Shown in pieces: positions 55,786 through 64,000 of a stretch of DNA of 64,000 bases. Position numbers and translations under genes: made by a program. This stretch comes from Escherichia coli. GTDB taxonomy: Bacteria > Pseudomonadota > Gammaproteobacteria > Enterobacterales > Enterobacteriaceae. Position 1 is the first letter of the stretch; every line of letters starts with the position of its first letter. Where the stretch lies: assembly GCF_013315695.1 (NCBI RefSeq), contig NZ_CP054353.1. One strand, written 5' to 3'. The notes beneath the pieces were generated by a model that did no database searches, had not been told where the DNA came from, and saw only the letters and a list, made by a program, of their open reading frames with translations.

Positions 55786-58038
55786 TTACAAATAGAGATA
55801 GTTCGGCGGTTCTCCAGTTTTCCCTAAAAGAAGAGCGCTACGCCCAGGAATATTGATATTTAGAGTTCCGCCTCTAAGCATAAATGCTTTACCAGGGGGG
55901 ATAATTTTTCGGGTATTATTAATAATAATGTTAACGCTATTACTCCCCATGTTTTTATATACTCCAGGTTGCAATTTGTTAGGCCAGGTACCTTCAACTT
56001 CTTCGTTTCCTTTATTTATTATAACTAGTCCATCATGAGGAGAGTGATTAATGTTCACAGAATCCCCACGACTAAAGGCCAGAACGTTTTTAGTTGCAAA
56101 TACACCCTCAAATGCGCTCCATATTCCTGCTTTATCTATATATAATGCGTGGAATTCATTGTAGAGCTGCTGATAGGTAGAGCAACCTTTATTAAGCCAC
56201 GCCTCACCGCCGACACGCGTCGACCCATCATAATTTTTAATTTCAGTCGTTGATTTTAATACTTGGCCATCCCAGTAAACTAAAGGCCTGCTGAACGGGA
56301 GAGCGGCCATATATGCCATTGCTAATTGTTCATCTTGTTGATGGTTAAATAGAAAGTCATTGAAAAGATTGCCATTGTTAGGAAAATCGTGGTTAATGTT
56401 AATCAATATCCGTCTTTTTGACGGGATGCTTGAGATTGTTGAACCCGGTTTTGATGCAAGGGTTTGGAGATCGCCACCAAATGAAAAGGCTTTTATCGTC
56501 TTCATGAGCAATGAAAAATCAATGGCGCTTAAATCATCTCTTTCATAAAGCAGCGATGACATTTGTTCTTCATCCAACTGACAAGTTACCAGGTATTCCA
56601 TGTAATTCATAACGGCTTTTTCATGATATATTGGGTTAAATAAGTTAGTATTGTGTAATCGCTCATTATAAATTGTAAGCGGTGGGGTTATTGATCTTTC
56701 TATTTGTTCATGTTTTGAGTGTTTTGCTGCATGGTAACGTAAACCTCGTACGCCATATTTTCGCATTTCACGAACGTATTGATTTTGCAACATAATAACC
56801 TGGTCACTTTTGGGGGTTGTTTTAGGCATTCCATTTAAACGCTTTTCTTTTAATGCATGGAGGTTTTCCCATTCATCCTTAGAGATGTTATCTTTACTTG
56901 TTTCAAAGTCTTTTGCAGTGAGATGTATATCTTCTGGATGGATTTGTTTACGTTCTTTTGTTACTGGATCTATAGTAAATGGAATCAAAACCTGACCTTG
57001 CCAATAGCCAGGGATACCACTTTCTATATCTTTACTGATCTTCGCTCGTATATCAGCAGAGGGATAATCCAGGTCATTTTTACCACTACCCCCAATTCCC
57101 ATAAAGTTAAAGGTATAATCAGGAATGATATCGATACCAAATTTTTTAGCATCTTTAACCAATGCGATAAAATCCTGCAAATCTCCCATTGGATTATGGA
57201 TGGTACAAAGATCTTCGGGTTGATAAGCGTGAAACCAGTAACCTTTTTCTTCTTCGGGAGTTTCTGGTCCGTCGGCGCGGAAAGTTGTCACTGGAGGAAT
57301 TTGTATATACCCATAATGGGAACGTGCAAACTCAGACATATTTTCCCTGATTTGCTGGTAGGTGGCATTAAAAGCATGAAGAATCGCTTCGCCAGGTTTT
57401 TTGGGGGTGATGATTTCACATTGTGATTTCTGAACAGCAGTAAGAGATTTACGCTCAAGTGTTTGCCGTAGATGTTCTGGATTGATTAGTATTTTAAATG
57501 TTTCTTGCTGTCCGGAAGGTGACGTCACGTTAATATTATATACATCGGCTGCTAGCTCATAGTCAGGAATGTTAATAGCATATGCAACATACTTATCTTT
57601 TGGGGATGGTTTGTCAGATATAATGTGAGTGAAATGTTCAGCTGGACCATACTGATGAACGCCGCTGTTATCACCTCTTTCAACCATTGTATCTCGTTGA
57701 TAAACCCATGTTTTCCCTTCTCCTATCCTGTCTGGCGCTGTAATGCTACGCTGTGCAGCTTTATTCAGCTCTCGGTAAGTTGTATCTGGAGAAAGGGAAA
57801 TTTTATAATCGTTTTTTAACAGATCATTAATGACTTTTTCTGCGTGAAAAGTTGATATAATTTCTCTGTCTTTTAAATCCTGAGGATAAACTCCACAAGC
57901 ATTAATAATATTTGTTATACAGTTTAGATATTCTAATGTATTTAATTTGGAATTTAGATCCCCGTCAGTAATGTTCCATGATAACAATGTGGGGTTGTCG
58001 ATAGGTAAATTTCCTGGTCCTGGTTTTATAGAAAACAT
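55786..58038 (-). CDS. ygaQ: Uncharacterised 750-aa protein, YgaQ-like; AT-rich, no signal peptide, contains a degenerate P-loop-like motif GIGGSGKN
   Basis: Single uninterrupted ORF in the slot between csiD and the tRNA-Ile gene; codon usage clearly more AT-rich than the flanking core genes. Confidence 0.6.
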   Translation of the reverse strand: MFSIKPGPGNLPIDNPTLLSWNITDGDLNSKLNTLEYLNCITNIINACGVYPQDLKDREIISTFHAEKVINDLLKNDYKISLSPDTTYRELNKAAQRSITAPDRIGEGKTWVYQRDTMVERGDNSGVHQYGPAEHFTHIISDKPSPKDKYVAYAINIPDYELAADVYNINVTSPSGQQETFKILINPEHLRQTLERKSLTAVQKSQCEIITPKKPGEAILHAFNATYQQIRENMSEFARSHYGYIQIPPVTTFRADGPETPEEEKGYWFHAYQPEDLCTIHNPMGDLQDFIALVKDAKKFGIDIIPDYTFNFMGIGGSGKNDLDYPSADIRAKISKDIESGIPGYWQGQVLIPFTIDPVTKERKQIHPEDIHLTAKDFETSKDNISKDEWENLHALKEKRLNGMPKTTPKSDQVIMLQNQYVREMRKYGVRGLRYHAAKHSKHEQIERSITPPLTIYNERLHNTNLFNPIYHEKAVMNYMEYLVTCQLDEEQMSSLLYERDDLSAIDFSLLMKTIKAFSFGGDLQTLASKPGSTISSIPSKRRILININHDFPNNGNLFNDFLFNHQQDEQLAMAYMAALPFSRPLVYWDGQVLKSTTEIKNYDGSTRVGGEAWLNKGCSTYQQLYNEFHALYIDKAGIWSAFEGVFATKNVLAFSRGDSVNINHSPHDGLVIINKGNEEVEGTWPNKLQPGVYKNMGSNSVNIIINNTRKIIPPGKAFMLRGGTLNINIPGRSALLLGKTGEPPNYLYL

Positions 58039-61817: not shown

Positions 61818-64000
61818 ATGAACAGGACCAGTCTCCATTATTGTCGCCGCTCAGTACTTTCCTTATTGATATCTGCCTTGATATATGCCCCGCCCGGGAT
61901 GGCGGCCTTCACTCCTGATGTTATTGGTGTGGTAAACGATGAGACTGTAGATGGCAGCCAAAAAGTAGATGAACGAGGTACAACAAATAACACTCATATT
62001 ATCAACCATGGCCAGCAGAATGTTTATGGTGGGATATCTAATGAAAGTCTTATTGAATCTGGTGGATATCAAGATATAGGACGTCATAACAATTATGTGG
62101 GGCAGGCTAATAATACAACCATTAACGGGGGCAGACAGACAATTCATGACGGGGGTATTTCCACAGGTACAATAATCGAGAGTGGCAATCAGGACGTTTA
62201 TACAGGTGGTATCAGCAATGGAACGACAATTAAGGGGGGTAATTCACACATAAGTGGGGGGACTGCGAATGGAACAATCATTGATGGTGGCAGCCAACGA
62301 GTAACAACTCAGGGGCATGTCGACAGTACAACGATAAATAAGTCTGGCTCTCAGGACGTAGTACAAGGAAGTCTGGCAACGAACACAACCATAAATGGTG
62401 GTCGACAGTATGTTGAACAGAGCACAGTAGAAACAACCACCATCAAAAATGGCGGTGAGCAAAGAGTATATGAGAGCCGTGCGCTGGACACTACGATTGA
62501 AGGCGGAACTCAGTCTCTGAATAGTAATTCAACGGCAAAAAATACGCAGATCTATTCTGGTGGTACGCAAATTGTTGATTACACCAGCACCTCGGATGTT
62601 ATTGAAATTTATTCCGGTGGCGTGCTTGATGTTAGAGGTGGTATGGCAACAAATGTTACTCAGCACGATGGAGCCGCTTTAAAAGTAACGACTTACGATT
62701 TGACGGTGAGCGGTACGAATAGTGAAGGGGCATTCTCCATCCACAATAACGTGGCAGACAATGTGTTGCTGGAAAACGGTGGTCATTTAGACGTATATGG
62801 TTCGGCAACCAGGACGATAATTAAAGATAAAGGAACAATGTCAGTTTTAACGAATGCTAAAGCTGATGCGACCCGAATAGATAATGGCGGGGTTATGGAT
62901 GTCGCCGGAAACGCGACCAATACCATAATCAATGGTGGTACACAGAATATTAATAATCATGGTATTGCCACTGGCACCAATATCAACAGTGGAACGCAAA
63001 ATATCAAGAGCGGCGGGAAAGCTGACACGACAAATATCTCCTCCGGGAGCCGGCAGGTTGTTGAGAAAGATGGTACGGCAACTGGCAGCAATATTAGCGC
63101 CGGAGGCTCGCTGATTGTCTATACCGGTGGTATCGCACATGGGGTTAACCAGGAGACGGGCAGTGCTTTAGTTGCCAACACGGGCGCAGGGACTGATATT
63201 GAAGGATACAACAAGCTCTCTCACTTCACTATTACCGGAGGGGAGGCTAATTATGTTGTGCTGGAAAATACCGGCGAACTGACGGTAGTGGCTAAAACCA
63301 CGGCGAAAAATACTACCGTTGATGCTGGCGGTAAGCTGATTGTCCAGAAGGAGGCTAAAACAGATACCATCAGACTTAATAATGGTGGCGTTCTGGAGGT
63401 TCAGGACGGTGGTGAGGCTAAGCATGTTGAGCAACAATCCGGCGGCGCATTAATTGCTTCCACGACTTCCGGAACACTTATCGAAGGAACCAACAGTTAT
63501 GGTGATGTTTTCTACATCAGGAATTCAGAAGCTAAAAATGTAGTGCTGGAAAACGCTGGCTCATTAACAGTCGTCACTGGTTCCCGGGCAGTTGACACGA
63601 TTATTAATGCCAACGGCAAAATGGATGTTTATGGAAAAGATGTTGGTACTGTACTTAATAGTGCGGGTACCCAAACAATATATGCCAGTGCCACTTCTGA
63701 AAAAGCAAATATCAAAGGTGGCAAGCAAACGGTATATGGTTTAGCCACTGAGGCAAATATCGAAAGTGGTGAACAAATTGTTGATGGTGGGTCAACAGAT
63801 AAAACGCACATCAAAGGCGGCACGCAAACCGTTCAGAATTATGGTAAGGCGATCAATACCGATATCGTCTCTGGCCTACAACAAATTATGGCAAACGGGA
63901 CAGCGGAAGGTTCCATTATTAATGGCGGTTCACAGGTAGTTAATGAGGGCGGTCTGGCTGAAAACTCGGTACTTAATGACGGCGGCACACTCGATGTGCG
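61818..64000 (+). CDS. ypjA: AIDA-I-type autotransporter adhesin, YpjA-like: signal peptide plus repetitive passenger domain; 5' partial, runs off the window
   Basis: ATG at 61818 with AGGATGA RBS; signal peptide MNRTSLHYCRRSVLSLLISALIYAPPGMAA; open to the window end with about 19-residue repeats of the form GG-Q-V...G-A-T-I. Confidence 0.8.
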   Translation, partial: MNRTSLHYCRRSVLSLLISALIYAPPGMAAFTPDVIGVVNDETVDGSQKVDERGTTNNTHIINHGQQNVYGGISNESLIESGGYQDIGRHNNYVGQANNTTINGGRQTIHDGGISTGTIIESGNQDVYTGGISNGTTIKGGNSHISGGTANGTIIDGGSQRVTTQGHVDSTTINKSGSQDVVQGSLATNTTINGGRQYVEQSTVETTTIKNGGEQRVYESRALDTTIEGGTQSLNSNSTAKNTQIYSGGTQIVDYTSTSDVIEIYSGGVLDVRGGMATNVTQHDGAALKVTTYDLTVSGTNSEGAFSIHNNVADNVLLENGGHLDVYGSATRTIIKDKGTMSVLTNAKADATRIDNGGVMDVAGNATNTIINGGTQNINNHGIATGTNINSGTQNIKSGGKADTTNISSGSRQVVEKDGTATGSNISAGGSLIVYTGGIAHGVNQETGSALVANTGAGTDIEGYNKLSHFTITGGEANYVVLENTGELTVVAKTTAKNTTVDAGGKLIVQKEAKTDTIRLNNGGVLEVQDGGEAKHVEQQSGGALIASTTSGTLIEGTNSYGDVFYIRNSEAKNVVLENAGSLTVVTGSRAVDTIINANGKMDVYGKDVGTVLNSAGTQTIYASATSEKANIKGGKQTVYGLATEANIESGEQIVDGGSTDKTHIKGGTQTVQNYGKAINTDIVSGLQQIMANGTAEGSIINGGSQVVNEGGLAENSVLNDGGTLDV

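Follow-up and report, generated by a model that had tools for sequence, protein, structure and literature searches.

The DNA analysed here is a stretch of 64,000 nucleotides from Escherichia coli (RefSeq assembly GCF_013315695.1, contig NZ_CP054353.1; hereafter, the window), and the analysis centres on an AT-rich islet that begins close to position 55,786 and continues beyond the last letter of the window. This interval is 100% identical to that of E. coli MSB1_4I (NZ_LR898874.1), and it is the K-12 locus ygaQ–ileY–ypjC/ypjB–pinH–ypjA, which has long been annotated and does not constitute a discovery. The counterpart in K-12 MG1655 (ypjA-pinH-ypjB-ypjC-ileY-ygaQ; b2647–b2652 and b4462) has the same genes in the same order and at the same site, between glaH and ssrA, with a nucleotide identity of ~94–95%. 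In MG1655, ygaQ contains three in-frame stops, ypjCB is split and the prophage CP4-57 occupies ssrA, whereas both open reading frames (ORFs) are intact in the window strain and a P2-like prophage is found at ssrA. The window strain further differs from K-12 by the substitution D436H in YgaQ and by changes in the acceptor stem of the transfer RNA (tRNA) gene ileY. The features of the locus, with their coordinates in the window, are as follows:

55599–55785, no strand: left border of the islet, upstream of the promoter region of glaH (csiD), located by a drop in identity and by the fall in G+C content (GC) in the bin that starts at 55,501.
55786–58038, minus strand: ygaQ, an intact 750-residue ORF whose product resembles glycoside hydrolase family 13 (GH13), with ~210 N-terminal residues of unknown fold.
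58039–58595, no strand: AT-rich spacer between ygaQ and ileY (GC ~0.31), delimited by composition.
58596–58671, plus strand: ileY, tRNA-Ile(CAU), assigned by ARAGORN, Rfam and RefSeq.
58770–58995, plus strand: single-copy, unannotated structured block of 226 nt, 3' of ileY, delimited by conservation and fold.
59428–60882, plus strand: ypjCB, an intact 484-residue ORF with domains DUF5507 and DUF5508 (Pfam; NCBIfam NF050179).
61243–61410, plus strand: pinH remnant, a serine-invertase fragment lacking both ends (RefSeq pseudogene, translation GDALLVCKLNRLGRSMWHLVVLLEELCERGINFRAL).
61634–61753, plus strand: 39-codon ORF (WP_001120794.1) in the leader region of ypjA, annotated in every strain inspected.
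61818–64000, plus strand (end in the genome at ~66386): ypjA/ehaD, autotransporter adhesin of the AIDA-I/Ag43 type (type Va), assigned by NCBIfam.

Base composition sets the islet apart from its surroundings. In 11 successive 500-bp bins covering positions 55,501–61,000, GC lay between 0.31 and 0.41 (mean 0.364), compared with 0.523 (standard deviation 0.044) over positions 1–55,500, and the ypjA portion (61–64 kb) had an intermediate value of 0.455. GC at third codon positions was 0.305 in ygaQ, 0.301 in ypjCB and 0.409 in ypjA versus 0.61–0.67 in glaH, lhgO and gabD, and ATA codons occurred at 16–27 per thousand in the islet genes versus 0–3 in the neighbours, which is an enrichment of about 10-fold. 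The original prediction, an annotation made from the letters of the window, had placed a change of GC and codon usage near 55.8 kb and had named uniform values as the outcome that would speak against it; the change is real and sharp (0.364 versus 0.523 for GC; 0.30 versus 0.61–0.67 for third positions). Its ORFs of 750 and 484 codons coincide exactly with ygaQ at 55786–58038(-) and ypjCB at 59428–60882(+), and its tRNA-Ile(CAU)-like gene is ileY at 58596–58671(+), with anticodon CAT, an Rfam tRNA score of 64 bits and a RefSeq annotation as tRNA-Ile. The decayed serine-invertase gene that it recognised is the RefSeq pseudogene at 61243–61410(+), and its adhesin-type autotransporter starts at 61818, carries AIDA/Ag43 passenger repeats and extends past the end of the window. 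The two long non-coding stretches that it had described as AT-rich fared differently: this is correct for 58039–58595 (GC ~0.31), but 58672–59427 is not uniform, as its first ~320 nt are conserved and of higher GC.

The islet is naturally bounded by the glaH promoter on one side and, on the other, by the 3' end of ssrA, the gene of transfer-messenger RNA (tmRNA), rather than by the tRNA gene. In the prophage-free strains MS 69-1 and A1_136, the islet spans the ~11 kb from upstream of glaH to the ssrA 3' end. In the MSB1_4I locus (L001), a P2-like prophage with an integrase, CI, Cox-region genes and a replication endonuclease lies in the ssrA 3' end directly after ypjA (L001 20173–26501, about 2.6–9 kb past the window end). 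Aside from this separate prophage, no integrase was found from glaH to ssrA, the sole trace of a recombinase being the 56-residue serine-invertase fragment. A direct repeat of the ileY 3' end, as expected of att sites, was sought in L001 8900–21000 and none was found.

Among 5426 complete E. coli genomes, at least 80% of an 8.5-kb segment was found in 2602, the spacer between the tRNA gene and ypjCB in 3009 and the 226-nt block in 3094, so that presence or absence is polymorphic, with a frequency of 48–57% depending on the segment. Genomes devoid of the islet, such as UTI89, gave a match at the paralogous tRNA gene only. In strain 1368KP, all DNA from glaH to the ssrA-linked integrase is lost, with an insertion sequence (IS), IS1, adjoining the gap; comparable IS-mediated losses are on record for strains W and B (PMC3032704). 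In strain ET220, an inserted tyrosine integrase separates the tRNA side from the downstream block. Elsewhere, ileY, which has its attB in common with ileX, serves SpLE1-like/ter elements and a phage (PMC8193136, PMC8767318, PMC4313913). The islet thus shares with tRNA/tmRNA-anchored islands (CP4-57 at ssrA; SpLE1-like/ter elements and a phage at ileX/ileY) the type of site, an adjacent tRNA or tmRNA gene, a deviant composition of low GC and rare codons, adhesin cargo, a recombinase remnant and a patchy distribution among strains. Unlike such integrase-mediated islands, it has neither an integrase, nor att-type flanking direct repeats, nor transfer genes, and its left part, being syntenic in E. 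albertii, is older than typical strain-specific islands.

Comparison with E. albertii separates the islet into two modules. The arrangement glaH–ygaQ–tRNA is the same in both species, and the left module, consisting of ygaQ, ileY and the ~226-nt structured block, is located in E. albertii where it is in E. coli; it therefore predates or spans the split of the species. Identity between E. coli and E. albertii is 94.7% over the gab operon up to window position 55598 (L001 9099), falls abruptly to 67% across ygaQ and amounts to ~90% over the tRNA gene and the block, which ends near window position 58993; nothing is alignable further on. From this point onwards, the cargo of E. albertii NBRC 107761 (L005 3-4259) comprises a homologue of EspG (E=3e-99 to PDB 3Q1C), a 362-residue PxxP-repeat protein with a weak OTU motif (GDGNCLYH) and a 222-residue orphan with a polar N-terminus, and YpjCB is absent from the locus. 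The right module, consisting of ypjCB, the invertase fragment and the autotransporter adhesin, is cargo specific to E. coli. The two ileY-linked islets thus have in common the tRNA gene, the flanking ygaQ and glaH, the conserved 3' block and AT-rich cargo that starts at the same point, but the cargo itself is unrelated: EspG-like and effector-like ORFs in E. albertii, ypjCB-pinH'-ypjA in E. coli.

Within the left module, ygaQ is far more divergent than its surroundings. Between the two species (L001 9287–11539 versus L005 7166–9409), the nonsynonymous rate (dN) is 0.31 and the synonymous rate (dS) is saturated at ~2, with a ratio of the two (omega) of 0.16 and 59% amino-acid identity, whereas the adjacent core genes glaH, gabD and gabT show dS values of 0.17–0.28. 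The depth of this divergence together with the low omega indicates that the species hold anciently diverged ygaQ alleles under purifying selection. Within E. coli, omega of ygaQ is 0.11–0.12, and the overall range of 0.11–0.16 compares with 0.01–0.06 in the flanking core genes.

Residues ~210–750 of YgaQ are predicted to form a divergent GH13 (alpha-amylase-like) catalytic domain followed by a C-terminal all-beta domain. Direct Pfam matches were weak (Alpha-amylase_C, PF02806, 3.5e-5 over residues 649–738; Alpha-amylase, 2.3e-3). A family profile built from four sequences matched the B. subtilis alpha-amylase 1BAG at E=3.8e-18, collinearly over regions I, II and IV, and Vibrio GH13 proteins showed 23–25% identity over residues ~210–747. 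Region II (GLRYDAAKH) and region IV (NHD) are clear and region III is ambiguous. Residues D436, E481 and D551, which fit the GH13 triad, are invariant in all alleles except that of the window; E473 was rejected as the acid/base residue, as several intact alleles have a lysine there. YgaQ shares with GH13 alpha-amylases (B. subtilis AmyE, PDB 1BAG/1UA7, and the Vibrio proteins) the collinear regions I, II and IV, the motifs GxRxDAAKH and NHD and the C-terminal beta domain, and differs from them by its low identity of ~23–25%, the additional N-terminal region of ~210 residues and the lack of a signal peptide. This N-terminal region matched nothing in any library searched, and no hydrophobic signal or transmembrane segment was found in the protein. 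On these grounds, YgaQ would be a soluble, Sec-independent alpha-glucan hydrolase or transglycosidase of the GH13 type with an additional N-terminal domain.

The window allele departs from its family at the putative nucleophile. Codon CAT at 56733–56731(-) replaces Asp436 by His (GLRYHAAKH versus GLRYDAAKH elsewhere), and the triad that is complete in the rest of the family is consequently broken here. Asp436 was present in each of eight other alleles inspected, including that of the closest relative, AR_0013, which makes D436H private among the nine. WP_000491448.1 is an example of an allele with D436. The exact protein allele is present on 257 public contigs and D436H is therefore a trait of the lineage rather than a sequencing error. 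With the putative GH13 nucleophile lost in this allele only, YgaQ of the window lineage is probably catalytically dead. K-12 ygaQ (L003 12398–14650) has been interrupted in another manner, namely by three in-frame stops without any frameshift, all at tryptophan codons (W111, W346 and W614 of the intact protein).

Known members of the YgaQ family are confined to E. coli, E. albertii (59% identity) and one gut-metagenome protein (P0128; 34%). The latter is encoded in a tRNA-Gln-linked islet (contig L002, 1–17390) whose resemblance to E. coli is limited to the first 166 bp (91.6%), and which also contains an InvH-like lipoprotein, a leucine-rich-repeat (LRR) fragment, MarT/FidL-like regulators, an EAL protein and a large invasin. 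The 494-residue neighbour of this relative has no similarity to YpjCB, and a profile–profile comparison of YpjCB with YgaQ likewise gave nothing. PADLOC returned no match for YgaQ, YpjCB and three neighbouring orphans, hence no sign of a defence system.

The tRNA gene itself carries the second lesion of this lineage. Window ileY is identical to K-12 ileY at 72 of 76 positions and differs, among others, by C4A (58599), A67G (58662) and C72T (58667). The anticodon and the near-identity are those of the lysidine-modified tRNA-Ile2 (CAU) of the ileX/ileY type, but the acceptor stem is not fully paired, as it has an A4xG69 mismatch in addition to the wobble pairs G1.U72 and U6.G67. Pairs C4-G69 and G1-C72 are found in all eight other ileY alleles, with C4A and C72T being private to the window lineage among the nine. 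C4-G69 is reportedly an identity element for isoleucyl-tRNA synthetase (IleRS) and TilS. The mismatch suggests that ileY of the window is probably impaired. A functional ileY would supply decoding of AUA, which the islet's own genes would need unusually often.

Upstream of ileY, the spacer towards ygaQ presumably holds the promoters of both genes, and E. albertii aligns to it over just one piece of 98 bp (58206–58303), with 85% identity. Promoter-like and terminator-like matches in the non-coding DNA showed no excess over the shuffled expectation. Downstream, the 226-nt block is 96–100% identical in 3094 of 5426 genomes and ~90% identical in E. albertii, far above its flanks, and marks the end of the part common to both species. 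Its K-12 counterpart lies at ~2,785,440–2,785,665. It folds on the plus strand with a minimum-free-energy z-score of -4.5. The consensus of this strand includes a hairpin of ~35 bp with seven G.U pairs, a GC hairpin at 58864–58885, which resembles a terminator on the minus strand, and an AT hairpin. Covariation is weak: pairing is kept by nine of 11 stem substitutions, all of them one-sided. Rfam, searched at a permissive E-value, matched the tRNA only and gave nothing for the block. A 41-codon ORF within it was considered as a small protein and found to be unsupported, with nine nonsynonymous versus three synonymous differences from E. albertii (counted by eye). The block may be a tRNA 3'-spacer RNA; that it encodes a regulatory RNA, so far without annotation and originating from the 3' external spacer of the tRNA, is a lesser alternative to the effector-locus reading discussed below.

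In the right module, YpjCB, which is split into ypjC and ypjB in K-12, is an orphan. Among the best 120 of 426 matches, identities were 77–100% and every source name given was E. coli or Shigella. An exhaustive HMMER search of 1.84e9 representatives retrieved E. coli-type sequences and fragments and no distant relatives; one candidate, P0169, proved spurious, being a low-complexity Thr/Ser/Asn repeat protein. Sequence and profile searches of the PDB gave nothing, PHROGs matched only the protein's own family, of unknown function, and tblastn of phage records found it in none. No Sec signal was detected; the N-terminus is rich in Ser and Asn and the C-terminal tail is acidic. The alleles are mosaic, with an omega of 0.52–0.61 overall and 0.24–0.33 for residues 235–440, and with hypervariability in codons 1–30 (dN 0.27). 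This pattern of omega indicates that the gene is real, its C-terminal domain being under constraint while the ends change fast. An AlphaFold2 model computed from a 24-sequence alignment had a mean predicted local distance difference test (pLDDT) score of 35 and was unusable. YpjCB thus appears to be a fast-evolving orphan of unknown fold, restricted to Escherichia and Shigella, whose C-terminal domain is still constrained. Its K-12 fragment ypjC is bound by Hha (PMC2408971), and a K-12 ypjC mutant has a mixed-biofilm colonisation phenotype (PMC3646849).

The two remaining genes of the module are a relic and a conventional adhesin. The pinH translation represents the central part of a Pin/Hin-type invertase. 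The 56-residue piece gave no NCBIfam match and lacks what defines a serine invertase, namely a complete catalytic N-terminal domain with the active-site serine plus a C-terminal helix-turn-helix. The window holds the first 727 of the 1522 codons of ypjA (omega 0.23–0.31). The NCBIfam matches of YpjA are to Ag43 (1.6e-78), AIDA-I (1.1e-64) and the repeat TIGR04415 (7.8e-62), and the full-length protein matches the beta-barrel TIGR01414 at 1.3e-98 over residues 1081–1522, outside the window. With its signal-peptide-like N-terminus, passenger of AIDA-type beta-helix repeats and C-terminal beta-barrel, 12-stranded in this class, YpjA shows all parts of a type Va protein and has these in common with the self-associating autotransporters AIDA-I and Ag43, nothing unusual having been found. 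It would be a self-contained surface adhesin. Within its leader, segment 61438–61788, which includes the 39-codon ORF, shares 87.5% identity with the DNA that precedes another autotransporter gene, that of the ymgJ locus, and the paralogy therefore reaches into the 5' non-coding region.

Taken together, we consider the islet, with a probability of about 80%, to be a composite, integrase-less relic of horizontally acquired DNA, whose unrelated passengers decay independently and are quieted by nucleoid proteins. It would take up the interval that separates the glaH (csiD)–gab operon from the ssrA 3' end. Its passengers, namely a GH13-like enzyme, a tRNA that reads a rare codon, the orphan YpjCB, the remnant of an invertase and the adhesin YpjA, would retain no mobility functions and constitute no working system. 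Genes of the islet have become pseudogenes in K-12, ATCC 8739, AR_0013 and O157. In the window strain, the ORFs are intact and decay appears in a subtle form, as D436H in YgaQ and C4A/C72T in ileY. Regarding silencing, intragenic promoters repressed by H-NS have been described in K-12 ygaQ (PMC7229825), and Hha binding or enrichment was found at K-12 ileY and ypjC (PMC2408971). This K-12 literature supports the view that nucleoid proteins of the H-NS/Hha type may keep the islet quiet by binding its AT-rich DNA.

Several observations weigh against this interpretation or its parts. Neither ygaQ, in view of the purifying selection acting on it, nor ypjCB, of which many intact 484-residue alleles exist in clusters of up to 2012 members, is simply junk. 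As to the assignment of YgaQ to GH13, its region I reads DIIPDYTFNF, with a Phe where GH13 enzymes have a His, and the proposed acid/base residue, E481, was placed by alignment alone. Moreover, the AlphaFold2 model of YgaQ, from a 4-sequence alignment, was unusable (mean pLDDT 38), which leaves the assignment leaning on sequence profiles alone. Finally, the effect ascribed to C4A in ileY leans on published identity elements of IleRS and TilS.

The original prediction had described an old, partly decayed, horizontally acquired region without an integrase, and had proposed a comparison across E. coli genomes. No integrase is annotated within the interval, the nearest being that of the P2-like prophage, ~4.9 kb beyond the window end, and the variable presence, the IS deletions and the pseudogenes in K-12, ATCC 8739 and O157 agree with such a history. 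The comparison found at least 80% of the length in 48% of the complete genomes. The original prediction had also singled out the region as the most plausible site of uncharacterised biology in the window; this stands insofar as two proteins of unknown function are encoded, and falls short in that the locus has long been annotated and named and contains no new system. The description and interpretation given by the original prediction are thus supported, with refinements concerning naming, borders, composite make-up and the subtle decay in this strain.

Among other explanations, the one that fares best interprets the islet as a fossil locus of type III secretion effectors. Accordingly, the ileY site would be an exchangeable effector locus in Escherichia, and YpjCB and possibly the amylase-like YgaQ would be, or would have been, unrecognised substrates of the injectisomes encoded by E. 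coli type III secretion system 2 (ETT2) or the locus of enterocyte effacement (LEE). This is suggested by the E. albertii DNA downstream of the same tRNA gene, with its EspG homologue (E=3e-99), PxxP-repeat/OTU-motif protein and 222-residue orphan, and by the companions of the distant relative P0128, which include the InvH-like lipoprotein, the LRR fragment, the MarT/FidL-like genes and the invasin. Furthermore, no Sec signal is present in YpjCB or YgaQ, whose N-termini are rich in Ser, Asn and Pro and have 15 and 13 polar residues, respectively, among the first 30, the N-terminus of YpjCB is hypervariable (dN 0.27), and both genes are AT-rich orphans. However, neither protein showed homology to known effectors in Pfam, NCBIfam, the PDB or the exhaustive HMMER search, the neighbourhood contains no chaperone gene, and the islet occurs commonly in commensals and also in K-12, a strain without a working injectisome. 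In addition, N-terminal composition is weak evidence, and the neighbourhoods in other species amount to guilt by association. We thus regard an effector locus as unlikely; if it were one, YgaQ would be the first glycogen- or glucan-degrading GH13 effector in Enterobacteriaceae.

It is more doubtful still that YgaQ is a DNA-repair nuclease instead of a carbohydrate enzyme, as reported for the K-12 protein by Bolt et al. 2016, who found that over-expression led to a 5'-flap single-stranded DNA nuclease activity and to mitomycin C resistance, and that both were abolished by mutation of D25/D27 and of an ERK triplet (PMC4725251). The protein of that study is a product of 110 residues, terminated by the first K-12 stop, and is thus an N-terminal piece without the GH13 domain (PMC4725251). 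The claim was not based on the phenotype of a deletion mutant (PMC4725251), and YgaQ matched no nuclease family in Pfam, NCBIfam, the PDB or PADLOC.

Least tenable is a single adhesion module in which a glycoside-active YgaQ and YpjCB modify or regulate YpjA, as Aah does AIDA-I: the genes are adjacent, YpjA has nine TIGR04415 repeats, a family named as a target of autotransporter O-heptosylation, and the K-12 ypjC mutant has its mixed-biofilm phenotype (PMC3646849), but ygaQ lies on the opposite strand, with the tRNA gene and the recombinase fragment between it and ypjA, E. albertii retains ygaQ without ypjCB or ypjA, the genes decay independently across strains, YpjCB has no glycosyltransferase signature in Pfam or NCBIfam, and GH13 enzymes are not known as protein glycosylases.

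Under the preferred reading of a composite, eroding relic, the islet as a whole is of little consequence and already known: its annotation goes back to the first K-12 genome, about half of E. coli carry it, and its AT-rich, silenced and eroding behaviour is textbook. It nevertheless offers a tidy case of gene-by-gene decay, in which stops, frameshifts, IS deletions, a catalytic substitution and a tRNA acceptor-stem mismatch have arisen in different lineages. It also contains two proteins worth assaying, namely the Escherichia-restricted GH13-like enzyme under purifying selection and the rapidly diversifying orphan YpjCB.

Outside the islet, the window contains another small AT-rich patch at 45001–46344 (GC 0.37–0.41), which is the alaE–stpA intergenic region; stpA itself lies at 45940–46344(+), 10 kb to the left of the islet.

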